A stretch of 64,000 bases of DNA from a virus: positions 1 to 64,000 of the IMG/VR virus record IMGVR_UViG_3300032954_000005. The stretch is one strand, 5' to 3'. The position numbers were made by a program, and so were the translations under genes. Positions 1 to 50,798 of the stretch are shown here, one piece after another. The notes beneath the pieces were generated by a model. That model did not search any database. It saw nothing but the letters and a program-made list of their open reading frames with translations, and was not told the DNA's origin. Each line of letters opens with the position of its first letter. The stretch's first letter is position 1.

Positions 1-1966
1 TAAGTGGCCCTGGTTGTTTTCCCTTTTCAGTGACAGCATAACCCCTTGGTGATTCTGTTATTTGGAAGTTTTTTGTCTGAAAAAAGGGCTTATTTGTACT
101 GCTACCAGAAGTAAACTCCCCGCCCTCGTTGCGCGGGTGCTCCTCTTCCTTAAACTCCGCGTCACGGGTCGCGCGGCGCCACAGCGCCTGGAACAAGGGA
201 CGCAGGCCGCGCGCCACGGCGCGTCGATCGTCCTGGGTTTTGCGCGCCCTGCGATCCGCGTGGCTTGCCAACGCCGCGCCCAGCGCGCGCAGGCCCGCGT
301 CCCTTGTCTCGGGCGCCGGGGCGGTCGACGTCCACAGCCGTCTGACCGTCGCGCGCACCGCGTCCGTCACCGAGCGCTGCGCCTCCAGCTCTTCGGGAGC
401 TGCCTCGGGCTCAATGTTTTCCTCCGCGCCCTCGCCGGGCGGGAGCTGAAGCGGCTCCTCGCTCCCGGCGCCCAGCAGGCCCTCCATCCCGGGCTGCGCG
501 ATGTCGTTCGTCGCCTCAGCAATGTCCTCGTCGGTGATGTTCGTGCCGAAGCCCGTCACGTCAGCCGCCTGCTTAATCTCCTGGAGGCACGTCCGGCGGC
601 CGATGATACCCGCGTTGAACAGCGCCGTCACGGATGCTGTCATGCCGTTCGCCAGCTCCGCCATCTCCTTGTTTGTCAAGGTCCGCGTCGGAAGCCAGCG
701 GTAGTCAAAGTCGTCGGGAATCTCCCCCAGGGTCGACATCGCGATCACCGGCAGCAGCTTGTCGAGCTGCGGCGAAACCTCCCGCGCCTGCTTCGACGCC
801 AGCAGCCCGTGGTAGAGGTACTCGTCCCCCTCGTTCGACTGGCTCAGGCCCGTGGGCGTGCGCCCAAACAGGCGGCTGAACGGGTACTCGGTCGCGCCGC
901 AGATGTCGAGCATGAACGACTGGTACACGTCGTTGATCCCCGGGAAGCTGTACTGGTGAGTCTCCAGCCCGCCCTTCTCAGGAAGTATCAGCATGCTCTG
1001 GTTTGAGATCAGCTGGTTCTGCACCTGGAGCGCCGCCATCAGGCGCTGCGTCGCGAGGCCCGATGACCCAGCCCCCGCGAGGAGCTGCGCCAGGTCAGGC
1101 TGCTTGTAGGCCAGGATGTTCGCCCGGAAGATAAGGTTCGCGATGTTCCAGCTCGTGTTATCCCGCTTGCGCAGCTCCTCGTAGATGATCTCGTAGACCG
1201 AAATCCCCCACATCTGCTCGACCTGCTTCTCCCAGTTCGGGAGGTCGCCGCCGATGAACCGCAGGATGCGCGAGCAGTGCACGTTGAACGTTCTAGTCGG
1301 GGACTGCGTCGTGACCTGGTAAAACTCAGGGAGCCCGAAGTCAGCGCAGTTCTCCACGTCGTCCACGCGCTTCGCCCCCGGGTAGATCCCGCTCCAGCGG
1401 TCGAACACCAGGAGCCCGCGGTACGTGTCGAGGCCCACGTCGTCGTAGTCCAGCGGCTGGTCGAGGATCTCCTCGTGCCCCTTGATGATGATCAGCGCCG
1501 CCGCCCCGCCGAACAGGCGCCCCCACTTCAGCGCCCGCAGCAGCGCCGCGTTGGTCTGCGTCTTTCGAAGAACCTTATCAAACTTGTCGATCTGCTGCGG
1601 CGTCGCACCGCTGGTCAGCGCGTAGCCGTTCTTCAGCATGTCCTCGGCCATGCAGTCCACGATCTTCCGCGCGATCCAGTTCGACCGGTAGAGCGACTGC
1701 ATCAGCACGTAGTTGCGCGTCAGCCGCGTCAGCGGGTAGGCCGTCGACTCCAGGAGCGACGGCGTGCCGAGCCCCATGCGCGCCAGCGTATTGACGAAGG
1801 CGTCGAGCGTCTGCGCGTCGACCGTGTTCAACGGCTGCGATCGCGTCAGCGAGGGCGCGACCTGCCGCGCTACGCGCGCATCGAGGGCCGCCGCGTCCTC
1901 CAGCAGACGCTGCGCCTCCGACGCATCCACGGTCGGAACGTCCGCCAGCATGATCCGATTATCCAT
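1..1966 (-). CDS. Phage portal protein (DUF1073-like) with C-terminal extension; 3' end outside window
   Basis: Not in the ORF track; translated by hand from ATG 1966: DAFVNTLARMGLGTPSLLESTAYPLTRLTRNYVLMQSLYRSNWIARKIVDCMAEDMLKNG, typical of DUF1073 portals. The same frame is open at the window edge (...DAEFKEEEHPRNEGGEFTSG...). Confidence 0.85.
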   Translation of the reverse strand, partial: MDNRIMLADVPTVDASEAQRLLEDAAALDARVARQVAPSLTRSQPLNTVDAQTLDAFVNTLARMGLGTPSLLESTAYPLTRLTRNYVLMQSLYRSNWIARKIVDCMAEDMLKNGYALTSGATPQQIDKFDKVLRKTQTNAALLRALKWGRLFGGAAALIIIKGHEEILDQPLDYDDVGLDTYRGLLVFDRWSGIYPGAKRVDDVENCADFGLPEFYQVTTQSPTRTFNVHCSRILRFIGGDLPNWEKQVEQMWGISVYEIIYEELRKRDNTSWNIANLIFRANILAYKQPDLAQLLAGAGSSGLATQRLMAALQVQNQLISNQSMLILPEKGGLETHQYSFPGINDVYQSFMLDICGATEYPFSRLFGRTPTGLSQSNEGDEYLYHGLLASKQAREVSPQLDKLLPVIAMSTLGEIPDDFDYRWLPTRTLTNKEMAELANGMTASVTALFNAGIIGRRTCLQEIKQAADVTGFGTNITDEDIAEATNDIAQPGMEGLLGAGSEEPLQLPPGEGAEENIEPEAAPEELEAQRSVTDAVRATVRRLWTSTAPAPETRDAGLRALGAALASHADRRARKTQDDRRAVARGLRPLFQALWRRATRDAEFKEEEHPRNEGGEFTSGSSTNKPFFQTKNFQITESPRGYAVTEKGKQPGPL

Positions 1967-2300
1967 TTCGCACCGTCACCGTCGCCTTCTCCTCCCAGTG
2001 CGCCACGCCGGCGCTCGTGCTGTTCGCGTCCACCACCAGCGTGTAGTTCGCACCCAGGGTCGTCGCGAGGTCCGTACCCAGCACCACCGTCTGGTATACT
2101 CCTGCCCCCTCGTGTACGAGAACGACGCCCGTCAGCCCCGCCACGGGTGCGCCGCCGTAGCCGTTCACGCGCCCCTGGTAGAGCGTCGCGGTGACCAAGG
2201 CGTCCGTCACCGGGTCACCCGTCACCCCGTTCACCACCGGCCCCCACTGAAGTGTCTGGTCGTTCCCCAGGGTAAACACGAACGTGAACGGCAGGATCAT
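1959..2300 (-). CDS. Hypothetical beta-rich virion-associated protein
   Basis: 113 aa ORF overlapping both neighbours. Confidence 0.6.
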   Translation of the reverse strand: MILPFTFVFTLGNDQTLQWGPVVNGVTGDPVTDALVTATLYQGRVNGYGGAPVAGLTGVVLVHEGAGVYQTVVLGTDLATTLGANYTLVVDANSTSAGVAHWEEKATVTVRNG

Positions 2301-2665
2301 GCTGACACCCCCGCTCCCTGGGCGATCAGGTTCGGAACCAGGCTCGCCCGCGCGCAGACGAGGCAGTTGATCTCCCGCATCTCAAACGCGTAGTCGGCAC
2401 CGCGAACGTAAACGTTCCACCCCTGGTCGTTCTGGTCGCGCAGCCTCACCCCGATGGGCTGGTCGGTGAAGGCGACCGGCGAGTTGAAGAACGTGCCGTC
2501 GTCGTTCACCCCCACCTGCCACGCGAGGCTCACGCCGTCGCTCAGCTCGAGGGTGATCGCCACCCCCGCCGCGGGAGTGGCGTTCAACGCCGGGGTCCCG
2601 TCCGCGGCCACGTACACCGTGACCGCCCAAACGGTTAAGTTCTCCGACCTAAGGTAGAGGCTCAT
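2297..2665 (-). CDS. Hypothetical protein
   Basis: 122 aa ORF, stop/start overlaps with neighbours. Confidence 0.6.
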   Translation of the reverse strand: MSLYLRSENLTVWAVTVYVAADGTPALNATPAAGVAITLELSDGVSLAWQVGVNDDGTFFNSPVAFTDQPIGVRLRDQNDQGWNVYVRGADYAFEMREINCLVCARASLVPNLIAQGAGVSA

Positions 2666-5600
2666 CAGTGAACGATCGCGCTGTTAAACCTACCGCTGTT
2701 GATGGTTTTGACCACGTTCGACGTGGCGAACGTGTAGAGCGCCCCAAAGTTCGAGTTACACCGCTCCTGGCTGACGATACCCGCGTCGCTCTCCGACCGC
2801 GGCGCGGCGTAGTAGGTCACGCCCGCGCCCGCGTTGTTGATCACCACCACGTGCTGCCACGTCCAGTCGTTGACCTTCGTGTTCAACGTCGAGTCGAGCG
2901 AGAGCTGCGCACAGTTGTTCGGGTCCGTCCCGTACGCCACCCAGTTATGCGGCGCCGACTCCGGGGTAAGCCAGGTGAACGTGCACCCCACGGAGTTACA
3001 GTTTGAAATCACGGGAGTCCCCACCCGCGCTCCCCCGGAGACGTTGAAGTTAAACGGGTACGTCGCGTCCCCCACGGTCGAGGCGATCGTGCACGGCCAC
3101 GCCTCCCCGCTGTTGCACGGGTTCGAGTCCTGGAACACCCCGTAGGGCGCGTACACGTGCCCGTTGACGGTCGTGACGCGCGCCCCGTTGCGCACCTGAA
3201 GGTAGTCGTAGTAGTTCCGCTGCTGCCCCAGCGCCTTAGGCGCGTACACGCTCGACGGGCTGTTGAAGGCGTTCCCAAATACCAGGTCCCCGCGCGTGCG
3301 GTACGTCGCGTTCGAGGTCAGCGCGTACAGCCACGCGAACGGGGTCGCGTTCAGCAGGTTCAGCTCGGTCGTCGTGTAGTCGAACGGCATGAACGGCGGA
3401 AAACTCGCCCCCGTGTAAAGAAAAGCCGCCGGGTCGCCCGCGTTGTAGCCCGTTGACCCGCAAACCGCCCCCGGTGTCGTGCACCACTCGTGCGCCCACG
3501 ACCAGTCCAGGTACGCCTTCACCGCCGTGGGAATCTCAGGGTGATAACGGTTGAATAGTAGCTCCTTGTTGTAGTAGTTGATCAGCGACTCCACCAGGAG
3601 GCCGTTGTACAGCGTCTTCGCCGCCGTCCCCAGCACGAAGCTGTTCGACTGGTAGTCCACGTCCGCGTAGCTGCGAAGGTTAATCGCCTCTTCTAAAATA
3701 GCCAGCTGCGAGTCGACCCGCGTCTTCTCCATGACGTCAGTAGTGCCGTTGATAAGGTCGCCGGCGTCGGAGTACTGCAGCATGTCGCTCACGAACCGCA
3801 CGTCAAACCCGTCCGCCACCACAGCGTACTTGTAAGCGTTGGGAAGCGCCGCCCCTGTGCTTGTGTAGAACTGCGCGAGAGCGTTCGCGTCGTTCGCCAC
3901 CACGGCGCTTCCCCCGCCGCACCCGGCCTGCGTGCTCCCCTTGCACTTCAGGTCGTTCGTGCGGTAGTAGTCCATCAGCATCGAAAAGTTCGTCGTCGCC
4001 GACCACTGCTGAAGATAGTTAGGGGACACCTGTAAAAAATTCCGAAACGGGTCTAGGTTCGCCTGCGCGCACTTGTAGTGCATCTGCGATGTTCCCACGT
4101 TGAAGTAGCTGGTGCCGTTCGCGTCGCTTACCGTCGACCCCCACGCCGTCGCCGACGCCCAGCTGGGCGCCGTCCCCGCGGAGGTCGACGCGCCGTTGAT
4201 TCCCCCGATCGCTCCCCCGCCCGTGGGAAACGTGTAGTAAACGTAGCCCCCACTGTTCCCCGTCACGGGCTTGATAAGCGTCCCGTACGGGTACGCGTGG
4301 TTCGCCTGCCAGTCCATCGCGACCGCCCCTACGAGGTCCCCCTGGCCAAGCTCCTCGCGCGAGCCATCGTAGTAGTAGAGCCCGACGTTCGACGCCGGGT
4401 AGGCTCCGTTGTCCAGCACGCCCTGTGAGTAACGCCACAGCTGCCCCACGTTCGTCGCAGCGCAGTAGTCCCAGGAAAAGTAGCCCATGAACCCCTGGGA
4501 GTTCACCTGGTTGTTGATCGCAGGAAACGAGGTCGCCTTCATCTCCGAAAAGGTCGGCGATGCCAGCACGGTAAACGCGTAGTTCGCCGCCGCGCCTGCG
4601 CCCACATCGACACCTCCCGTGATCCCCTGCATCGTAAGCTTAAACGTGTACGCGCCGGGTGTCGTCGTCCCGCTCGTCGTCTTTACCCAGACAAAGTTCT
4701 GCGTCGTGTAGCTCGGCGTTCCCGTCCCGTTGTCGAACGAGTCGAGCCCCACCTGGTAGTCAGCCGCGTAGTCGCACGGAGCGGTGGGCCCGCAGGACGT
4801 GGCGGTGTAAAGGTAATCCGTCGATGGGGACCCCGACTGGTAGCTGAGCAGGCTCGTAACAACCCAGAACGAAACGCCGTCCACGCAGCTCCCGCCGTGG
4901 GTGGTCAAGGCGCACGTGTGGTCCGACCCATCGTTGAGAATCGCCTGCTTCAGGTAGATCTGGCTCGTGGCGACACCCGCCACCTTCGCGGTCGCCAGCT
5001 GAATTGGAAACGCGTGCCCCAGGTAAACGCTGGGAGGACCAAACGTGTAGAGCCTCAGGTCGTAGGAGCCCGCCGGGTTCGCCTCCACGGGGGTCAGCGG
5101 CATGAGCATTCCGCCCCCGCCCACGATGTCCACCAGGTGCCCGAGGGTCGCGTAACCACCCGTGTCCGTGCGGATGGACGCCACCCAGAAGCCCCACACC
5201 TGGTCGAACGCGCTGTTGTACGCATCCACCAGGGGGAACACCTTCTTAACCTTCACCGCGTGCGTGGTCACCGAGTCCCCCGCCGCTCCGGTCAACGGGC
5301 ACGGGTCGACGACGGCGCAGGCCCAGCGCTCCGGGTTGATCCCCAGGCTGTTGTAGATGTTCCGCGACATCACCACGCGTGAGTCGGAGGCGTGCGCCGA
5401 CCGCCAGCCCACGCAGACCTCGGTCGCGTCCGCGGGCGCGCAGCCCGTGATCGCCTTGTACGTCGAAACGTCGGGCGCCCAGTAGAGCGTCGTGTTCGCC
5501 CCGTACGCCTGCGCCAGCCCGGGCGTGATGGTCAGGGTTACCGGCCCGGCGCCCGTCGCGGTCACGATGCGGTAAAGGTCCGTGTGGTTCGAGTTCTGTG

Positions 5601-5814
5601 ACAGCGTAAACCTGCTCCCCACGGTGGGCGCGTTCGTTCCCGCCTGGATGACAATCGTCGTCGTGCCCGCGTTGTACGACGCCATCAGCATCCAGCCCAC
5701 GGCGCCGTCCTGGTTCGTCAGCTCCACGTTGTTCGTGTTGTTAAGGTCCTGCGCCCAGGCGCAGCCCATGCTCAGCAACAGAACCCCGAATGTCGCCGTT
5801 AAACGTAAGCGCAT
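2665..5814 (-). CDS. Large signal-peptide protein; possible glycan-degrading receptor-binding protein with C-terminal FN3-like domain
   Basis: 1049 aa. N-terminus MRLRLTATFGVLLLSMGCAWAQ; aromatic helical region (PFAWLYALTSNATYRTRGDLVF) suggestive of an alpha/alpha-barrel; many Cys pairs. Confidence 0.6.
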   Translation of the reverse strand: MRLRLTATFGVLLLSMGCAWAQDLNNTNNVELTNQDGAVGWMLMASYNAGTTTIVIQAGTNAPTVGSRFTLSQNSNHTDLYRIVTATGAGPVTLTITPGLAQAYGANTTLYWAPDVSTYKAITGCAPADATEVCVGWRSAHASDSRVVMSRNIYNSLGINPERWACAVVDPCPLTGAAGDSVTTHAVKVKKVFPLVDAYNSAFDQVWGFWVASIRTDTGGYATLGHLVDIVGGGGMLMPLTPVEANPAGSYDLRLYTFGPPSVYLGHAFPIQLATAKVAGVATSQIYLKQAILNDGSDHTCALTTHGGSCVDGVSFWVVTSLLSYQSGSPSTDYLYTATSCGPTAPCDYAADYQVGLDSFDNGTGTPSYTTQNFVWVKTTSGTTTPGAYTFKLTMQGITGGVDVGAGAAANYAFTVLASPTFSEMKATSFPAINNQVNSQGFMGYFSWDYCAATNVGQLWRYSQGVLDNGAYPASNVGLYYYDGSREELGQGDLVGAVAMDWQANHAYPYGTLIKPVTGNSGGYVYYTFPTGGGAIGGINGASTSAGTAPSWASATAWGSTVSDANGTSYFNVGTSQMHYKCAQANLDPFRNFLQVSPNYLQQWSATTNFSMLMDYYRTNDLKCKGSTQAGCGGGSAVVANDANALAQFYTSTGAALPNAYKYAVVADGFDVRFVSDMLQYSDAGDLINGTTDVMEKTRVDSQLAILEEAINLRSYADVDYQSNSFVLGTAAKTLYNGLLVESLINYYNKELLFNRYHPEIPTAVKAYLDWSWAHEWCTTPGAVCGSTGYNAGDPAAFLYTGASFPPFMPFDYTTTELNLLNATPFAWLYALTSNATYRTRGDLVFGNAFNSPSSVYAPKALGQQRNYYDYLQVRNGARVTTVNGHVYAPYGVFQDSNPCNSGEAWPCTIASTVGDATYPFNFNVSGGARVGTPVISNCNSVGCTFTWLTPESAPHNWVAYGTDPNNCAQLSLDSTLNTKVNDWTWQHVVVINNAGAGVTYYAAPRSESDAGIVSQERCNSNFGALYTFATSNVVKTINSGRFNSAIVH

Positions 5815-5816
5815 GC

Positions 5817-8800
5817 TCAGTTGACGATTAGGTAGCTAAAGCACGCCGGGTTGGTGGCCGGCGCCGCCACGAGCCCGATCGTAAAGCTTGTTCCCGCCGT
5901 GCGCGCGGTCACCACGGGTGACCCCAGCGTAAGCGGCGACGTGGTATCACAGGTCACGCCCAAACGCGCGCCCAGGCTCTGGTCCTCGGTAAGTAAGATC
6001 TGACTGTTCGCCGTCACGGCGGTCGTGTCCACCACCACCGTCGTCGCGCTCGCCGCAACGACCACGGCGCCACTCGTGGCGGCGCCGCAGACCGCGGGGC
6101 TCCCCGCGCTGGCGCAGTTCGCCGTTTGGTACCCGGTGATCGCCGTATGCGTAAACGTTCCGCCGCTGTACGCGCAGACGTGCGTCGCGTCGCCGCACGG
6201 GCTGGGGATCGCTACCGCCGTCGGCGCCGCTAAGCTTCCCGTGCCGTTCATGACGATCGTGTTTGCGGCCTGCTTCGCAAAGTTCGCCAGCGGAAGCGCG
6301 TTGTACGCAAACAGCGAGTCGGTCCAGGTGCACGTGCTCAGGGTACAAGAAAGGTACATCAGGTCGTTCCCGGCGGGCGCCCCCACCGGGGCGTTGAGAA
6401 TATAGTTGCTCGTCGCCTTCGTCCCGAGGGTCGTCATGCCCCCGCTCGCGCCGTTAAATAACGTCAGCGTTCCCGAGTGCGTTGCGTCCCCCAGGGTCGG
6501 CGTGCGCGTCAGCGCGGGAGTCGTGCCCGCGAGGATCATGCCCGCGGAGCCCGCCACGTCCAGCGTCGTATTCGAGGATGTTCCCCCCACCACGACCGTT
6601 GCGTTCGGACTCGTGATCGTGTCACCACCCGCCCCGGCAGGTGTGTCACAGCCCGTGCCGCCCGAGCCCTGGTAGGGATAGCACTTCGCGCCCACCGCGG
6701 CGACGGCCGACAGTGGGCTCCCGCCTAAAACGTAGCCCGACAACGTCGTCCCCGTGCCCGTGCCGCCCTGGCCTACGGGAAGCGCCGCCGACAGGTGCGT
6801 CGCGTTCACCGTCGGGTTCGGATAACTCCCGCTAAGGTCCCCCGACGCCGCGCCGTTCGGCGGAAGCGCCGTGGGCGGCGCCCCCGCGTCGGTCAGCTGA
6901 ATGATGTTCGTCGAGACGGTCACCCCCACGAGGTCCCCCGTCGTCGGGGGCGTCGCGAACCCCTTGACGATGCTCGACGAGATCGCGCCCGACGCCCAGG
7001 TAGTGAAGGCCCCCGACGCCCCGTTGTACTCTGTCAGCGTCCCGGAGTGCGTTGCGTCCCCCAGGGTCGGCGTGCGCGTCAGCGCGGGAGTCGTGCCCGC
7101 GAGGATCATGCCCGCGGAGCCCGCCACGTCCAGCGTCGTGTTTGTCGGGGTTCCGCCCACGGTCAGGGTGCCATTCGGGGTCGTGATCGTGTCGCCCCCG
7201 CCGCCCCCGCCGCAGCTCTGCTGCGTCCACGTGTTCGTCGAGGAGCACTCGTAGAGGTTACAGCCCGCGGTCGCGTCAGTCGCGAAGTACAGCTGGCTTA
7301 CCGAGCAGGTCGCGGGCCTGCTGGCCGCTAGGCCGTACAGAAACGTATTCTGAAAATCGGAGCTTCCGTCGTTGTTGTGTCCCAGGCCCACCAACGCCGG
7401 GCTGTTGTGGTTCAGCGCGAGCACCGAGCTATCAAGCAGCAGGTTGCCGTAGATGGACTGCGTGCCCACAGAGTTGGCGACGTCAGCACCGCCGCTGTCC
7501 CCGTTCCGGGTCGATGCCGGGTCCACGTTGGTTACGATCGCGGTCGCGCCCCCCGCGGTGTACACGCCCCACGTGTGGTTCCCACCCGAGGGCGTCAGGT
7601 TCCAGTACGGGTGATCCACCTTGAGAACGGCCGTCGAGGCCGATGACGGGCAGCCCGCCTGGTTCATCTGGTACGCGTGGGAGCCGGTGACCGCCCCGGT
7701 GTTGATCGACGTGATTCCGGTAAAGCTGTACACGCTGTTGTTCGGGTACGCCCCGGTCGAGCAGTCCAGCCCCGCGAACTCGTCATCGTTCGAGACGAAC
7801 GTGCTGTCGCTACCGTACACCGTATTCTGCTGCGTCCCGCCGTTCCGATACACGACCACGTCAGCCTGGCCAACCGCGTACAGGTTCGTAAACTTAAAAT
7901 TTTTCGTCGGGGCCGTGCTGTCGCCGCCGATGGGAGCGGTCAGGCAGCTTGTGGTCGGGGTTATGTAACCCACCCCGTGGGTAAGTAAGTTCGTGGTGCC
8001 GTTCGTGTTCAGCAGGTACGACGACCCACCGCAGGACGCTGATCCCGTCACGATCTGCGCCTGGTAAGGGTTATCGCAGATCGAGTCGACCGTAACGTTT
8101 TTTAAGCCGCTCAGGCTGGGGAGCAGCGCGGAGCCGCAGTCGTACAGCACGGACGCCGGGTTCCCGCAGCTTAACGTAACGGTGTCGCCGCTCGCCAAGG
8201 TTCCGAACGCCATCGCGGTCAAGAGGGCCGTACAGCGGTCGGCGTTCGTGTTCGTGGCCGCGTCGTAAACCGTAGGAGACCCCGTCGCGTGGTAGACGAT
8301 GACCCCGCCGTTCACCAGCCCTGGACCTGCCTGGATCGTGGACGTGGGCCCTGTAGGGGAGGTGATGGTCACGCCACCCGTGCCTACCAGCGTAGTAATT
8401 CCAGCGCCTGCGCTGCCTGAATAAGGGCATTCACCGCCGACGCCCAACAAACAGTGCAGCTTATTGTCGCTTCCCAGGTAAAGCCCGAAGTCGACGCCCC
8501 CGTCCAACGTTGGTGTCCCGGACTGCTTCCAGCCCTCCCACAGGGAGGGCGTCGCGCTCGACCCGACCTGAACGCCCGCGTCGAAGTAGGTCTCCTGCGC
8601 AAAATGCTGGCCCGACGCGTTCAGAAACGCCTTGGAGGCCAGGTCCGCGGGTAGGTTCGTCACCTGACTCTCCGCGATGTTCGCGCTCAGGCCCCCGGCC
8701 GTCCCCGTCGTGCTGGCGGTGTTGTTCGGGATGTCGGCCGACTGTAGCACGGGAAGCTGCGCGTGTGGAAGCGTCCCCGTCGTGAGGTCGGACGCCGACC

Positions 8801-45004: not shown

Positions 45005-45067
45005 TTGAAAATAAAGAAAATAAATCTTTAATTATTTTGTGTACAACGCTGAGAAAGGGTTTAGAAT
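45005..45067 (+). promoter_or_regulatory. Promoter with AT-rich upstream element driving the ribozyme-punctuated operon
   Basis: A/T tract 45005-45038, TGTACA-16 bp-TAGAAT; shares TACAACG...GGTTTA with the promoter at 19239. Confidence 0.55.
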
Positions 45068-45437
45068 TATCTTTCCTTACGGAATGGTTGTTCGGTTCGT
45101 TGAAAACAAAGGCAGGCGCGTAGGGCCCGAGAGAATCGGAGCCGCTCAGGGTGGTGCCTATCGTCGCGACGACGAGGGATGCAAGCGGGGCAGGCGCGGC
45201 CGGAATACGAAGCTGAAAAGCAAGACGCGGAGAATACGACGACGCGGGCGGCGCGAAAAACGGATGCTGTGAGCGAACGCGGGAGGCGAGGTCACGAAGG
45301 TCGACCTCAACGGCGGGAGCGGGCAATATGGTTCGGTCGCGGGGTGGGCGTACGGGTTGCGGACGTTGGCTGCTTTCAGTCGCACGAACTTTTCAAAACG
45401 TGTGAAGCCCCGCACCGGCATCGGGCGGGCAAATTTT

Positions 45438-45499
45438 GCAGAGGACGACCGCGGCGCAGACCGCGGCGGAATGCGCGGCCCAGGTTCCAAGCCCTGGGC
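45438..45499 (+). ncRNA. Twister ribozyme copy 1 (permuted, variant)
   Basis: GCA-GAGGA-P1 hairpin-G^AA-TGC...CCAGG-TTCCAAGC-CCTGG; G instead of U at the cleavage site and altered T2 spacing. Confidence 0.65.
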
Positions 45500-45548
45500 G
45501 ACATTTAACCCCAAGCGACGCGGCGCACGTACCGCGAAGGAGAACAGT

Positions 45549-45815
45549 ATGATGAATCAATACAAGTGCAGCAACTGTCACAGCTCCAACCTTCACCAAA
45601 GCAAGAGCAGCGAGCACGACGTTGTCTGTAACGACTGCCACATGACGACGGACAAGGTCACTGCCCTGAAGGCGCCCTGGGCGTACTGCGGTTTCGACGA
45701 GGTTCACGTGCCGCAGCACGACGGGGCAGAGCGCATCATCACCCGAAAGCAGGCGAAGGCGGAGGGAATCAAGCTCGCGCCTTACAAGTATTTTTACACA
45801 GCTTTGAAGTTCTAA
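45549..45815 (+). CDS. Small zinc-ribbon protein
   Basis: AAGGAG RBS; CSNC...CNDC. Confidence 0.7.
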   Translation: MMNQYKCSNCHSSNLHQSKSSEHDVVCNDCHMTTDKVTALKAPWAYCGFDEVHVPQHDGAERIITRKQAKAEGIKLAPYKYFYTALKF

Positions 45816-45816
45816 G

Positions 45817-45878
45817 CGCAGAGGACGACGATCGCCACGCGATCGTCGTAATGCGGCGCGCCGGTTCCAAGCCCGGCG
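45817..45878 (+). ncRNA. Twister ribozyme copy 2 (type-P5-like permutation)
   Basis: CGCA-GAGGA-CGACGATCGC/GCGATCGTCG-T^AA-TGCG-GC..CCGG-TTCCAAGC-CCGG; predicted cleavage 45849/45850. Confidence 0.88.
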
Positions 45879-45930
45879 GGTTCGTATAATAACGATGCGA
45901 CGCGGCGCACGTACCGCAGAGGAGAGCAAG

Positions 45931-47448
45931 ATGAACACAACGCAGTTCAGTCCGCTTCAGCAGCGCATCTTCAAGTTCGTCGCGGAGGAAACCGGGAACG
46001 CATCGATCGAGGCGGTCGCCGGGTCAGGCAAGACGACCACGATCGTGGCCGCCGCGTCGTACCTTCCGCCAACGTCGCGCAACCTCTTTCTGGCGTTCAA
46101 CAAGTCGATCGCCGAGGAGCTCGCGACACGCCTTCCCGCGCACGTCACGGCGAAGACGTTGAACAGCCTTGGGCACGGCGCGTGGGCCGCAAAGCTCCGC
46201 CCAGCCCGCCTAAAGCTCGACGCCAACAAGACGCGCGCCATCCTCGATAAGCGCGTCGTCGAGGCAGACAGAAAGCTGTACGGCTCCCTGGTGACGCGCC
46301 TCGTTGCGCTGGCGAAGTCCGCGGGCCTCGCACCCGCGGGTGCCCCAAACGCATATCCCCTGGTGGACGACACCCTCGATGCGTGGCTCGACATGATCGA
46401 GTACCACGACCTGGAGGTGCCCGAGGAGGGAAACGTCAACCGCGCGATCGACCTGGCGCGCAAGGTGCTCAGCGAGTCGATTCGGCAGGCGTTTCTTGGC
46501 TGCATCGACTTTGACGATCAGATCTACATGACGGTGGTCTACCGCGCTCCGATGAGCAGGTTTGACTTCGTGTTTGTCGATGAGGCGCAGGACCTTAACT
46601 GCATCCAGCACCAGCTGATTGCGATGGCAATCAAGTCGGGCGGTCGGCTCATCGCGGTGGGGGACCCCCGCCAGGCAATCTACGGCTTTCGTGGGGCGGA
46701 TGCGTCGAGCATGGAAAACCTGCAGCGGCGCTTTCGCACAGTAACGCTTCCGCTGTCGATCAGCTACCGCTGCCCACAGGCCGTGGTCCGCGAGGCGCAG
46801 AAGCTGGTTTCGCACATTCAGTCAAGCGAGACGGCGCCCGTCGGGGTTGTTGAAACGCTTGACGCGTACAACGCCGATACGTTTAACGACAGCGACGCAA
46901 TCGTGTGCCGCAACGCGCGACCCCTGGTCGCGCTCGCCTTCCAGCTGATTCGCGCCGGGCGTGGCTGCCGCGTCCTTGGGCGGGACATTGGCCAGGGCCT
47001 TCAGGCGCTCATAAAGAAGATGAACGCGGCCGACGTTGACGCGCTCGAGACCAAGCTTGACGCCTACCTCGACCGTGAAACGCGCCGCCTGCTCGCGAAG
47101 AACCAGGACGCGAAGGTCGCGGCGCTCGAGGACAAGGTCGACACCATCCGCCTGTTTATCGACCAGCTGGGCGAGGACGAGCGGACGATCGACGCGCTGT
47201 TTGGGAAGATCGACGCACTGTTCACCGACAACGGCCACGGAAAGCTTACGCTGTGCACCGTCCACAAGGCGAAGGGCCTCGAGTGGGAGCGCGTGTTCAT
47301 CCTCGACGCGCACCTCATGCCGTCGAAGTACGCGCGACAGGATTGGCAGCTGGCGCAGGAGACGAACATCCACTACGTGGCGATCACTCGCGCGAAGCGC
47401 GAGCTGCGCTACATCGACAGCGAAGGATTCAAAGCTAAGAAGCAGTAA
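45931..47448 (+). CDS. UvrD/Rep-like SF1 helicase
   Basis: AVAGSGKT, DEAQD, VGDPRQAIYGFRG, SYRCP, TVHKAKGLE, YVAITRA. Confidence 0.93.
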   Translation: MNTTQFSPLQQRIFKFVAEETGNASIEAVAGSGKTTTIVAAASYLPPTSRNLFLAFNKSIAEELATRLPAHVTAKTLNSLGHGAWAAKLRPARLKLDANKTRAILDKRVVEADRKLYGSLVTRLVALAKSAGLAPAGAPNAYPLVDDTLDAWLDMIEYHDLEVPEEGNVNRAIDLARKVLSESIRQAFLGCIDFDDQIYMTVVYRAPMSRFDFVFVDEAQDLNCIQHQLIAMAIKSGGRLIAVGDPRQAIYGFRGADASSMENLQRRFRTVTLPLSISYRCPQAVVREAQKLVSHIQSSETAPVGVVETLDAYNADTFNDSDAIVCRNARPLVALAFQLIRAGRGCRVLGRDIGQGLQALIKKMNAADVDALETKLDAYLDRETRRLLAKNQDAKVAALEDKVDTIRLFIDQLGEDERTIDALFGKIDALFTDNGHGKLTLCTVHKAKGLEWERVFILDAHLMPSKYARQDWQLAQETNIHYVAITRAKRELRYIDSEGFKAKKQ

Positions 47449-47453
47449 AGGGA

Positions 47454-47512
47454 CGCAGAGGACGCCGGCGATCGCCGGCGTAATGCGGCAGGCTGGGTTC
47501 CAAGCCCCCGGC
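47454..47512 (+). ncRNA. Twister ribozyme copy 3
   Basis: CGCA-GAGGA-CGCCGGC/GCCGGCG-T^AA-TGCG-GC..GGG-TTCCAAGC-CC; predicted cleavage 47481/47482. Confidence 0.88.
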
Positions 47513-47561
47513 GCGCAGAACACCAAGCGAGGCGGCGCGTGTACCGCCGAAGGAGAATGAA

Positions 47562-47741
47562 GTGACTAGCAAGCAAAAGAGCCAAAACTTCAAGCTGCGT
47601 ACAGCCTTGAAGCTGATCAAGCTGCACATCACGGAGGAGGCGAACGATCAAAACCGCCACCTTCACAACGCCGTTCAGCTCATCGTAGACGTGGCGAGGG
47701 AGCATAACCTTTTAATTGAGGAGGTGCGCCGTGCAGGTTGA
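47562..47741 (+). CDS. Small hypothetical protein (59 aa)
   Basis: GTG start after AAGGAG, translated by hand. Confidence 0.55.
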   Translation: MTSKQKSQNFKLRTALKLIKLHITEEANDQNRHLHNAVQLIVDVAREHNLLIEEVRRAG

Positions 47742-48222
47742 GATCGGGCAGGGCGGCAGGCTTACCACCGCCGCGGACGCGCTGAACTTCATCCTGGCCG
47801 GGAACGCCGTGTTCACGCTGGTGTCCCGGGCGACGAGCGCGCGGTACACCTACAAGGTGTCGCGCGCGGTCGACCGCGTGGGCAGGCCCAGCGCGACGCT
47901 GTTCAAGGAAGACACCGCCGGCCCGGTCTACTTCGTTTCGCTCCTGGCCGGGCCGGACAACACGGCGGACTACGTCTACCTTGGAATCATCCGGGACGGC
48001 GCGTTCCGTCTGACGCAGAAGAGCAAGCTGACAACCGCGTCGAAGCCCGTCCAGGCGTTCACGTGGACGCTCACGCGTCTGCTCCTCAGCCACCTTCCCC
48101 TGAACGTCGAGGTGTGGCACACGGGCAGGTGCGGGCGCTGCGCGCGGCTCCTCACCGTACCCGAAAGCGTGGCGCGCGGCATCGGCCCAGAGTGCGCGGC
48201 GCGAATGGATGGCGCCGCGTGA
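47731..48222 (+). CDS. DUF6011-like zinc-finger protein
   Basis: GRCGRCARLLTVPESVARGIGPECA. Confidence 0.8.
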   Translation: MQVEIGQGGRLTTAADALNFILAGNAVFTLVSRATSARYTYKVSRAVDRVGRPSATLFKEDTAGPVYFVSLLAGPDNTADYVYLGIIRDGAFRLTQKSKLTTASKPVQAFTWTLTRLLLSHLPLNVEVWHTGRCGRCARLLTVPESVARGIGPECAARMDGAA

Positions 48223-48530
48223 GCGGGCTGTATTTGCTCCACTTCGAGCCGCGGTATAGGCACGCCGGGCACTACCTTGGTTACGCAAAAAACATCTCCC
48301 AACGTGTTGCAGAGCATCGTGCGGGAAGAGCGCGAACGCCGCTGACTACGGCCGCGGCGCGCGCCGGGTGCTGGATGTTCCTGGTGCGCACGTGGGAGGG
48401 CGGGACACGCGACGACGAGCGCAGGCTCAAGGGCACGTCGCGCCCAACTACGGGAAGAACGGGCAGCCTCGCACGCCTCTGCCCGGCGTGCGCGGCGCTC
48501 AAACAGAAAGGAGAACGAAGTGGAAGTTGA
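48219..48530 (+). CDS. GIY-YIG family nuclease
   Basis: LYLLHF....RHAGHYLGYA....RVAEH...ERRLK. Confidence 0.75.
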   Translation: MSGLYLLHFEPRYRHAGHYLGYAKNISQRVAEHRAGRARTPLTTAAARAGCWMFLVRTWEGGTRDDERRLKGTSRPTTGRTGSLARLCPACAALKQKGERSGS

Positions 48531-48760
48531 GCAGCTGATCGAATTTTTATCGACCGTAACAGACAAGGAGGTGCGCATGGCGCAGCAGACGTTGTGCAGG
48601 GGGCCTGCGGGTATTCACCGCATCACGCGGGAGGGCGTCGCGCCCGGCTACCGCTGGCGCTGCGTGGACTGCAACGGGCAGTTCAAGATCGCGCCATCAG
48701 CCTACAACCTAGACCTGGCGCGCGAGCGTCAGCTTAACCAAACAACGAAAGCGAGGTAGC

Positions 48761-48943
48761 ATGAACGTCTCAATCAAGAACGGTGTTCTCACGATCACCA
48801 TCCCCGTCAACAAGGACCCGCTCCCGGAGTCGAAGTCGAAGAAATCGCTCGTCGTCGCCTCCACCAACGGAAACGTCGTGACCAAGGAGCTTGTCAACGG
48901 CAAGCCCCTGGTCATCGGCCTCAACGCCTACGTGAAGGTGTAA
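48761..48943 (+). CDS. Small hypothetical protein
   Basis: GAGG RBS; L.ITI......SKS.KS..VASTNGN...IGLNAY. Confidence 0.7.
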   Translation: MNVSIKNGVLTITIPVNKDPLPESKSKKSLVVASTNGNVVTKELVNGKPLVIGLNAYVKV

Positions 48944-48946
48944 CTT

Positions 48947-48990
48947 CGCAGAGGACGGCGCGCGCAGTACGGCGCGCCGTAATGCGGCGG
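48947..48990 (+). ncRNA. Truncated twister ribozyme copy 4 (P1/P2/L1 only); 44-bp exact repeat of 49187-49230
   Basis: Identical 44-mer CGCAGAGGACGGCGCGCGCAGTACGGCGCGCCGTAATGCGGCGG; no P4/L4 hairpin follows. Confidence 0.8.
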
Positions 48991-49024
48991 AAAATAAGGC
49001 GAAGCTTAAGCTAAAGGAGGCAGT

Positions 49025-49186
49025 GTGATTACAGAGCTGAAAGCCGTGGAAACTGCTATGCGCAGCTTTATCAGCAATTGGAGCCAAGGGCTAAAAGATG
49101 ATGGGCTTTTCGACAAAGCTCGTGCGATCGCTGACAGCCTTTCAAATCTAGCTGCTGCGATTGAATCCAGCGAGGACAACGTATAA
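49025..49186 (+). CDS. Small lower-GC hypothetical protein (53 aa)
   Basis: AAGGAGG RBS, GTG start, TAA directly before ribozyme copy 5. Confidence 0.6.
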   Translation: MITELKAVETAMRSFISNWSQGLKDDGLFDKARAIADSLSNLAAAIESSEDNV

Positions 49187-49249
49187 CGCAGAGGACGGCG
49201 CGCGCAGTACGGCGCGCCGTAATGCGGCGGTCGCGGTTCCAAGCCCGCG
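49187..49249 (+). ncRNA. Twister ribozyme copy 5
   Basis: CGCA-GAGGA-CGGCGCGC/GCGCGCCG-T^AA-TGCG-GC..CGCGG-TTCCAAGC-CCGCG; predicted cleavage 49220/49221. Confidence 0.88.
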
Positions 49250-49279
49250 CACGCAGAGCCTAGAAAAGGAGGTAGTACA

Positions 49280-49471
49280 ATGTACCAGCGAATCATAAGG
49301 CAGACCCTGGGCTGTAACGCGCTGATGGCGGCGCTCGTCGAGGGCGTCATCCGCCAGGAGGCCCCCAACCACAACCTGGACGCGCTGTCGCGCGTCGAAC
49401 TCGAGGACGCGATCGTGACGGCGTACCGCGTCGTCGAGTACGGCTACAACGTCGTCATCGGGGAGGCGTAA
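49280..49471 (+). CDS. Hypothetical protein
   Basis: AAGGAGG RBS, 63 aa. Confidence 0.65.
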   Translation: MYQRIIRQTLGCNALMAALVEGVIRQEAPNHNLDALSRVELEDAIVTAYRVVEYGYNVVIGEA

Positions 49472-49472
49472 C

Positions 49473-49796
49473 GTGGCGACGAACAAGGTGCACCAGAAGG
49501 ACGTGCGCGTCGGCGCGGTCTACGCCGTGAAGGTCAGCGGCGCGATCGCGCCCGTGCGCATCGACGCACGGGACGAGTACTTCATTCGCGGTAAAAAGCT
49601 CGTGCGCTGGAATGGTACGAGCCTACGCACGAACCTGAAGGTCTACGTGCGCAGCGCCGCGAAGCTGCGCTACGAGCTTATTAGATGCGAGGGCGGGTGC
49701 GGGCGCTGGATTGAAAAGCTCACCACGCCCTCACGGTGCAGGGCCTGCAAGGGCCGCGCGCTCATCAACGAGGAAAATAATGCGGCGCCCTCGTAG
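49473..49796 (+). CDS. Hypothetical protein with C-terminal Cys cluster
   Basis: 107 aa; V.VGAVY.VKVSG pattern. Confidence 0.6.
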   Translation: MATNKVHQKDVRVGAVYAVKVSGAIAPVRIDARDEYFIRGKKLVRWNGTSLRTNLKVYVRSAAKLRYELIRCEGGCGRWIEKLTTPSRCRACKGRALINEENNAAPS

Positions 49797-49987
49797 AAAG
49801 CGCCGCCACCTGACCCTTGAGGGAGTAGTCGCGCGCGCCCTGCGCGACTACCTCCTGGGCGTCCGCCGCGGCGACGCGTCGCGGACGCCGCGCGCCCGCG
49901 CGCGAACCCTCGAGCGGCGCGGCCCGCGCTACGGCTACCGCCGCCGCGTCAACAACCCCCTGAGCTGGTTTTGAAAAAGGAGAACGC

Positions 49988-50290
49988 ATGAACCTGTCGG
50001 CGCTACTACGCAACGCGGCGCAGAAGCTGTTTTACCGCACAAGGCACGAGGCCCAGTTCAGCGACCAGCAGCGCGCCGCGCAGGCCGTTGCCCAGGAGAA
50101 GGCGGCGGAGGCTGAGCAACACGAAACGTTTAAGGACGCGCGCCCACTCCACCACGGCAACAAGCGGACGCGAGGAGGCGGCACGGCGCGCTGCCGCTGC
50201 GCATCGAAGGCGCTCATTCCCGTGTGGTGCCCGCGGCACCGGGCCTACGTGCTGAACGGCGCCGCCGACCGCGAGCTGACTCACAAATAA
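49988..50290 (+). CDS. Hypothetical protein
   Basis: AAGGAG RBS, 100 aa. Confidence 0.6.
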   Translation: MNLSALLRNAAQKLFYRTRHEAQFSDQQRAAQAVAQEKAAEAEQHETFKDARPLHHGNKRTRGGGTARCRCASKALIPVWCPRHRAYVLNGAADRELTHK

Positions 50291-50293
50291 TTA

Positions 50294-50322
50294 TTTCAAT
50301 TTTACGCGGCCTGTGGTACAAT
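50294..50322 (+). promoter_or_regulatory. Extended -10 promoter
   Basis: TTTCAA-17 bp-TACAAT with TG at the extended -10 position. Confidence 0.55.
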
Positions 50323-50385
50323 GGTCGTCGTTGAACAAACCATCCGGCGCCGACCGCGCCGCTCAAAATCAAAAGGAGAACCACC

Positions 50386-50688
50386 ATGCCAACCGAAACC
50401 GCCACCCCGCGCGCGAAGTTCACGTCCGTCGCGCCCACGAAGAAGACGAAGAAGAGCGCGAAGGCCGTGAAGAAAAGCGCGTCGACCGGCGCGCGCAGCA
50501 CGTACGCCACGGACCAGCGGAAGATCAAGGTACTGGCGAAGGAAAACCCCAAGCGGAAAGGGTCAGCAGCCTACCAGCGCTTCGAGCTGTACAGGAAGTC
50601 GACGACCGTCGCCGACTTCATCGCGAAGGGCGGGCGCACGATCGACCTCGCGTATGATCAGTCTCATGGGTTCATCAAGCTGGATTAG
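50386..50688 (+). CDS. Basic putative DNA-binding protein with Lys-rich N-terminal tail
   Basis: KKTKKSAKAVKK tail plus ENPKRKGSAAYQRFELY...DLAYD..HGFI domain; AAGGAG RBS. Confidence 0.7.
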   Translation: MPTETATPRAKFTSVAPTKKTKKSAKAVKKSASTGARSTYATDQRKIKVLAKENPKRKGSAAYQRFELYRKSTTVADFIAKGGRTIDLAYDQSHGFIKLD

Positions 50689-50768
50689 GTAAACCACGTC
50701 GGGTCTCTAAAACGCGCCCCTGGGTCACCGGAGCGCACTAGCGACAGGCCTTACGCGCCCGTCGCCGC

Positions 50769-50798
50769 GGCCCTGGCCAACGCGGCCAGGGCCTTTTT
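50769..50798 (+). terminator. Rho-independent terminator
   Basis: GGCCCTGGCC-AACGC-GGCCAGGGCC-TTTTT between convergent arms. Confidence 0.85.

Follow-up and report, generated by a model that had tools for sequence, protein, structure and literature searches.

What becomes of a phage transcript that carries several predicted self-cleaving ribozymes, most of them lodged between the stop codon of one gene and the ribosome-binding site of the next? The question is posed by the first 64 kb of the 77,248-nucleotide (nt) phage record IMGVR_UViG_3300032954_000005 (the window, 64,000 nt in full), which derives from a wetland metagenome, is estimated to represent a complete genome, and was traced to two wetland metagenome DNA runs and to no RNA run. 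The window contains four complete twister ribozymes of type P5, starting at positions 45437, 45817, 47454 and 49187, and one truncated copy at 48947–48990. All copies lie on the + strand within a single apparent operon. Type-P5 twister was the sole RNA family found in an Rfam scan of the window, and the remaining 13 kb of the 77 kb genome yielded zero Twister-P5 matches. What this analysis itself observed is the set of ribozymes, where they sit with respect to the genes, how they covary and that they recur in other phages. The original prediction for this locus, made from the sequence letters, was that the stretches bounded by ribozymes could be released and closed into circular messenger RNAs (mRNAs). 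Our own answer, which we hold to be probable, is that the ribozymes punctuate an early or replication operon whose transcript is processed co-transcriptionally into linear mRNAs.

Permuted twisters and the RNA pieces they would release

The elements of the ribozyme follow the order CGCA (the 5' strand of helix P2), GAGGA, a closed P1 hairpin and the nucleotide N-1, then, beyond the cut, AAUGCG (the 3' strand of P2), GC and a P4/L4 hairpin with the loop UUCCAAGC. The original prediction had described this same permuted arrangement (CGCA-GAGGA-P1-N-1 / AAUGCG-GC-P4/L4), and matches to the Rfam family Twister-P5 (RF02684, gathering score 37.6 bits) bear it out. Three copies exceed the gathering score, namely ribozyme 2 (45817–45879; Rfam match 45817–45876, 55.2 bits; the preceding stop codon ends 1 nt upstream), ribozyme 3 (47454–47512; match 47454–47509, 52.0 bits) and ribozyme 5, which scores highest (49187–49251; match 49187–49248, 58.8 bits; the upstream stop codon abuts it). 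Helices P1, P2 and P4 are supported in their permuted order by compensatory changes, P2 being nearly invariant. In an alignment of 22 copies fitted to the model, 94% of cells pair, double changes are seen in 12 of 17 pairs and none of 500 shuffles was as good (0/500), covariation that backs P1 and P4. Pseudoknot T1, formed by GGA in the junction and UCC in the loop, pairs at all three positions (3/3) in each of the four full window copies, and the letters of the second pseudoknot, T2 (GC after P2 with GC of the loop), are present.

The window copies thus share P1, P2, P4, T1, T2 and the conserved core with RF02684, but depart from it in three respects. Firstly, ribozyme 1 (45437–45499; match 45437–45496, 35.2 bits), the weakest full copy, lies below the gathering score and carries a G in place of U before the cut and one P2 pair fewer, leaving a 3-bp P2. 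The base before the twister cut is not conserved and its change is tolerated (PMC5408937, PMC11662667). The orthologue of ribozyme 1 in L006, a relative of this phage, scores 40.7 bits, above the Rfam threshold, and ribozyme 1 itself reaches 53.6 bits with covariance model R1, which was built partly from ribozyme 1. Secondly, the truncated copy (48947–48990; match 48947–49007, 34.3 bits, below the gathering score) consists of the 5' half plus AAUGCGGCGG, 44 nt that recur without change at 49187–49230. We rejected it as an active ribozyme, since P4/L4 and the T1 partner are missing; this half-copy is probably dead. Thirdly, there is no apparent P5 stem, the stop codons lying directly against the 5' ends of the ribozymes.

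Self-cleavage is expected between N-1 and the conserved A, a site taken from the family consensus. The known chemistry of the family predicts cuts after G45469, U45849, U47481 and U49220, which define unit 1 (45470–45849, 380 nt), unit 2 (45850–47481, 1632 nt) and unit 3 (47482–49220, 1739 nt). The cuts and monomer lengths of the original prediction were the same; it had not remarked that the left bound of unit 1 is the weakest copy or that unit 3 encloses the dead half-copy. The released ends that it anticipated, a 5'-OH on the 3' half and a cyclic phosphate on the 5' half, agree with ours as far as geometry goes.

The placement of the predicted cuts relative to the genes is tight. For every copy but ribozyme 1, which follows an untranslated leader, the gap between stop codon and ribozyme is 0–5 nt. 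The next start codon lies 44–81 nt downstream of the cut. The processed 5' untranslated regions (UTRs) of units 1–3 would be 79, 81 and 80 nt long and have a common plan: the P4 hairpin, a spacer, a hairpin of the form GCGG-CGCACGUA-CCGC, the ribosome-binding site GAAGGAGA and the start codon. The second hairpin, directly upstream of GAAGGAGA on the + strand, is predicted at three exact or near-exact copies (45520–45535, 45902–45917 and 47532–47547, the third having GUGU). It was not found after ribozyme 5 or in the L006 UTRs inspected, nor does the window hold another mismatch-free copy. At the 3' ends the units fold as flush P1 hairpins (z -1.9 to -3.0), and at the 5' ends as P4 plus the second hairpin, with P4 a few nt from the 5'-OH end.

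The arrangement is shared with L006, whose helicase is 86% identical to that of the window and which has eight type-P5 twisters above threshold in 6 kb, each between a stop codon and a ribosome-binding site. Among approximately 170 loci with helicase relatives at ≤50% identity, no twisters were found near the gene, and the arrangement is therefore specific to this lineage as far as the helicase is concerned. To find other arrays, the viral collection was scanned for the pattern and then searched with a covariance model that the present copies had supplied. The unrelated phage contig L099 has six twisters on the same strand, L249 has nine, L244 seven, and L233, L206, L211 and L226 five each; in all, about ten phage contigs besides L006 and L099 hold type-P5 arrays of three to nine copies, spaced at 350–1300 nt. 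These arrays in unrelated contigs mark the layout as recurrent in phages. The L249 array spans 377–5346 on the - strand, and arrays are also present in L226/L220, L246 and L259.

We propose that a single transcript would begin near 45075, the probable start, and end at a terminator-like hairpin at 50769–50793. The four type-P5 twisters would fold during transcription and each would self-cleave in the gap that separates a stop codon from the ribosome-binding site of the following gene, shedding a leader of approximately 395 nt and leaving linear mRNAs for the zinc-ribbon gene, for the helicase, for a block of five to six genes and for the terminal block. Because the permutation is of type P5, every cut would leave a hairpin at both new ends. 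The 3' terminus of each upstream piece, a cyclic phosphate, would sit flush with the GC-rich P1 hairpin, and downstream pieces would begin with the 5'-OH and the P4 hairpin, followed by the conserved second hairpin and the ribosome-binding site. From what is generally known of bacterial mRNA decay, the hairpin ends of the phage pieces should resist 3' exonucleases and attack by 5'-monophosphate-dependent RNase, and the stability and translation of each gene would be uncoupled from those of its neighbours. Precedent comes from tandem hammerhead ribozymes flanking prophage genes, which cleave in vitro and in E. coli and have been read as processing long phage transcripts (PMC3088659); a review proposes the same idea for polycistronic transcripts (PMC6765202).

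Several points weigh against this account. Cleavage in vivo, like the limits of the transcript and the stabilising or insulating effect, is something we infer. Ribozyme 1, at 35.2 bits, falls short of the Rfam threshold, the promoter and terminator are consensus matches only, and the stabilisation of the ends draws on general knowledge of mRNA decay in bacteria. Finally, processing and occasional ligation can coexist.

Pairing within ribozymes and across unit ends

Each released unit would begin with the 3' half of one ribozyme and end with the 5' half of the next. The arrays permit a comparative test: were re-pairing of unit ends important, the 3' half of ribozyme n should remain matched to the 5' half of its successor, n+1. 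We examined this at 20 array-bearing loci. No contacts other than P2 and T1 join 5' and 3' halves, and T1 occurs in at least 10 sequence types (GGA/UCC, GGG/CCC, GUG/CAC, GCA/UGC, UGG/CCA, CGG/CCG, GAG/CUC, AAG/CUU, GCG/CGC and GUA/UAC). All 63 scorable copies (63/63; 51/51 outside this phage and L006) have T1 fully paired inside the ribozyme itself. When T1 is instead read between the two ends of a unit, only 36 of 47 units (26/37 outside this phage and L006) have it intact. When T1 and P2 are scored jointly, the junction is as good as a native ribozyme in 27 of the 47. One ribozyme of L099 illustrates the pattern for P2: a pair changed from A-U to C-G is compensated internally, and is mismatched with both neighbours.

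T1 is thus kept within ribozymes and often not across unit ends, which argues that selection has acted on the cutting of a continuous transcript rather than on the reassembly of ends. The test leaves room for ligation by a protein that needs no ribozyme fold. It also does not decide the matter for this phage, all of whose copies are alike; in this phage and L006, T1 and P2 are compatible across the ends in 10 of 10 units.

Rival readings of the arrays

The reading offered by the original prediction is that each unit is cut twice, P2 and T1 bring its ends back together, a host ligase of the RtcB type closes it, and the circle is translated from its internal ribosome-binding site. We regard this as unlikely, although part of the case for it is sound. 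All halves in this phage and L006 are interchangeable, with a common P2 (CGCA/UGCG) and T1 (GGA/UCC), so that a chimeric ribozyme made from the two ends of one unit folds like a native one; the claim that unit ends can re-pair in this phage is upheld. The folding model gives P2 end-closure probabilities of 0.96, 0.45 and 0.33 for the three window units, but these fall within the range obtained for units with shuffled bodies, and the energy model carries no length penalty for long-range end closure. Nested pairing between the halves is worth only -3 to -5.4 kcal/mol. Outside the ribozyme halves there is no extra complementarity between cognate ends (-34.95 kcal/mol, against -36.03 kcal/mol for non-cognate ends, p = 0.56), and no stem bridging the unit ends was found, only the 4-bp P2 and T1 being available. 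By comparison, the synthetic Tornado system needs an added stem (PMC13622603).

The chemistry of joining is likewise well founded. It had been stated that RtcB joins ends of this kind, and indeed mRNAs with a ribosome-binding site, coding sequence and stop codon, flanked by twisters, were circularised by native RtcB in E. coli (PMC12628768), while RtcB closes ribozyme-cut retrozyme RNAs at 30–80% in vitro (PMC7229834). RtcB was found in 10 of 14 control genomes. The phage would have to rely on such a host enzyme: a search of its proteins returned no RtcB, no ATP-dependent or Rnl-type RNA ligase and no 2'-5' RNA ligase. The nearest helicase relative in the genome collection, at 50% identity, lies on a 13 kb contig (L196, DATKMG010000180.1) of a Terriglobia metagenome-assembled genome (MAG). 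This MAG encodes RtcB, but as a faint hint of a Terriglobia host the match is too weak to use.

Closure would in any case be hard to maintain. The circular minimum free energy (MFE) fold of all three window units contains P2, and with chimeras that fold like native ribozymes the junction would rebuild a complete ribozyme, so a ligated circle should cleave itself again. Continuous translation round a circle would not be possible either, because every open reading frame (ORF) stops just before a ribozyme. The T1 counts from other arrays and the internally compensated P2 change in L099, both given above, tell against the circular reading as well. A 2011 study of prophage hammerhead arrays had already raised the idea of circular or spliced products, but its search for circular ones detected none (PMC3088659, data not shown). 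A 27-nt word spanning the unit 2 back-junction is absent from metagenome and viral contig collections, a weak test as these are mostly DNA assemblies. The original prediction thus had the geometry and chemistry right, and the circles themselves found no support. We accordingly think it improbable that, given an active host RtcB, the units are joined during infection into closed, translatable circular mRNAs as a natural counterpart of Tornado.

The prediction had also likened the layout to that of retrozymes and viroid-like RNAs, and here too the likeness holds in part. Viroid-like circular RNAs and retrozymes with hammerheads (PMC4918200, PMC7229834) share with the phage array monomers bounded by ribozymes, with complementary ribozyme halves at their ends, and can be closed by transfer RNA (tRNA) ligase or RtcB. 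Theirs, however, are non-coding RNAs of 170–1000 nt that form ribozyme-hiding rods and spread by reverse transcription or RNA replication. The units described here are mRNAs of a double-stranded DNA (dsDNA) phage and have no rod-like fold, nor have they a retro-element partner; no reverse transcriptase was found among the phage proteins.

A different possibility is that the ribozymes serve mainly as boundaries of modules at the DNA level, 55-nt repeats of approximately 80% identity that promote recombination of gene blocks, with RNA cleavage secondary. Every large difference between the operons of the window and L006 is bounded by ribozymes (45495–45930 and 47482–49220 in the window, against 2205–5980 and 8019–8085 in L006), and two identical 44-nt ribozyme pieces enclose a low-GC insert. 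In the stretch from ribozyme 1 to the helicase the window has one unit and L006 six; unit 3 is present only in the window, and the two ribozymes that bound it have flanks in common with just one ribozyme of L006, number 8. However, these differences come from a single genome pair, and any regulatory element present in several copies would be expected to recombine as a by-product. P1, P4 and T1 covary strictly, which shows that the RNA fold is under selection, and a repeat that served recombination alone would have no need of such a fold. We therefore consider it unlikely that module exchange is the main role of the ribozymes. As a lead from this one pair, the comparison nevertheless suggests that the repeats may also act as recombination points for gene blocks.

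That the cleaved ends (2',3'-cyclic phosphate and 5'-OH) or the freed leader act on host RNA repair or defence rather than on phage gene expression is very improbable, since no specific evidence favours it and the tight placement from stop codon to ribosome-binding site before many unrelated genes points to mRNA processing, even though ribozyme 1 would cut off a conserved leader of approximately 360 nt that lacks an ORF and many cyclic-phosphate ends would arise early in infection.

The operon and its place among known ribozyme arrays

The likely start of the operon is a promoter-like site on the + strand at 45040–45067 (TGTACA, a 16-nt spacing and TAGAAT, a consensus match only) in an AT-rich stretch; the AT-rich block and the TGTACA are also kept in L006. 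It is followed by the untranslated leader (45075–45436, + strand, approximately 360 nt), which has no convincing ORF. Long blocks of this leader match L006 at 100% identity, as against only about 68% for the adjoining genes. Rfam gives no match to the leader, and its fold energy is ordinary (z 0.14). Once cut, the leader would leave with a cyclic-phosphate 3' end, and it may be a non-coding RNA.

The genes that follow are all on the + strand. The sole gene of unit 1 is an ORF of 88 amino acids (45549–45815) with weak zinc-ribbon-like Pfam matches that lie below the cut-offs, and that of unit 2 (45931–47448) encodes a UvrD-type superfamily 1 DNA helicase (PF00580, 2.8e-23; phrog_1967, 3.3e-108). 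Unit 3 has five small genes (47562–48943), encoding in order a protein of 59 amino acids, a DUF6011 protein (47731–48222), a weakly GIY-YIG-like protein (48219–48530), and proteins of 79 and 60 amino acids. The final block of small genes (49280–50793) has no ribozyme at its 3' end and is syntenic with the L006 region downstream of the last L006 ribozyme. A strong terminator-like hairpin (50769–50793, + strand, again a consensus match only) closes the operon.

Also within unit 3, between the truncated copy and ribozyme 5, lies the low-GC insert (48991–49186, + strand, 196 nt; 47% GC against 63% nearby), with its own ribosome-binding site and an ORF of 53 amino acids (49025–49186) that has no family match. 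The exact 44-nt direct repeat (ribozyme 5' half plus AAUGCGGCGG) that brackets it, at 48947–49230, gives it the look of a recent gene capture at a ribozyme. Contigs of the DNA runs, whose cover here is fragmented and of low depth with many foreign GC-rich pieces, yielded no clear variant with or without the insert. A 312-nt DNA contig from the second wetland sample (run X2) matches exactly over the 75 nt at 48868–48942 and continues with unlike sequence where the truncated ribozyme begins, which may point to a variant in which something else adjoins this boundary.

The feature belongs with the clustered self-cleaving ribozymes of phage transcripts that have been known since 2011. In the hammerhead arrays of Perreault et al. 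(PMC3088659; reviewed in PMC6765202), as here, a phage transcript has several same-strand ribozymes on either side of single genes or of short runs of genes, and which genes these are differs from one relative to another; for those arrays processing into gene-length mRNAs was favoured, and circular or spliced products were considered. The array of this phage differs in that the ribozymes are type-P5 twisters, that all its copies have the same half-to-half contacts, and that a conserved second hairpin precedes the ribosome-binding site. Twisters and other ribozyme classes have been noted near phage genes (reviewed in PMC6765202), and the role of self-cleaving ribozymes in bacteria and phages is largely open (PMC6765202, PMC5408937).

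The closest synthetic parallel is Tornado (PMC12628768, PMC13622603), in which twisters likewise cut on both sides of an enclosed ribosome-binding site, coding sequence and stop codon and leave 5'-OH and 2',3'-cyclic-phosphate ends. Tornado mRNA constructs also place an insulating hairpin before the ribosome-binding site (PMC12628768), resembling the uniform UTR of approximately 80 nt described here. In contrast, Tornado adds an end-joining stem and its circle keeps a 47-nt scar (PMC13622603), whereas the phage units lack this stem and would regain a complete ribozyme on joining. The Tornado scar is not known to act as a ribozyme.

Setting pairing within ribozymes against pairing across unit ends gives a general in silico test of what selection maintains in a ribozyme array, cutting or re-joining, and here it favours cutting. 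This phage and L006, with four and eight near-identical ribozymes placed from stop codon to ribosome-binding site in one operon with a recognisable helicase, provide a clean test case for what such arrays do. If circles do form, they would amount to a new way for phages to express their genes, and would be the first circular mRNAs of a dsDNA phage that encode protein; if they do not, the arrays would be a natural analogue of the ribozyme insulators of synthetic biology.

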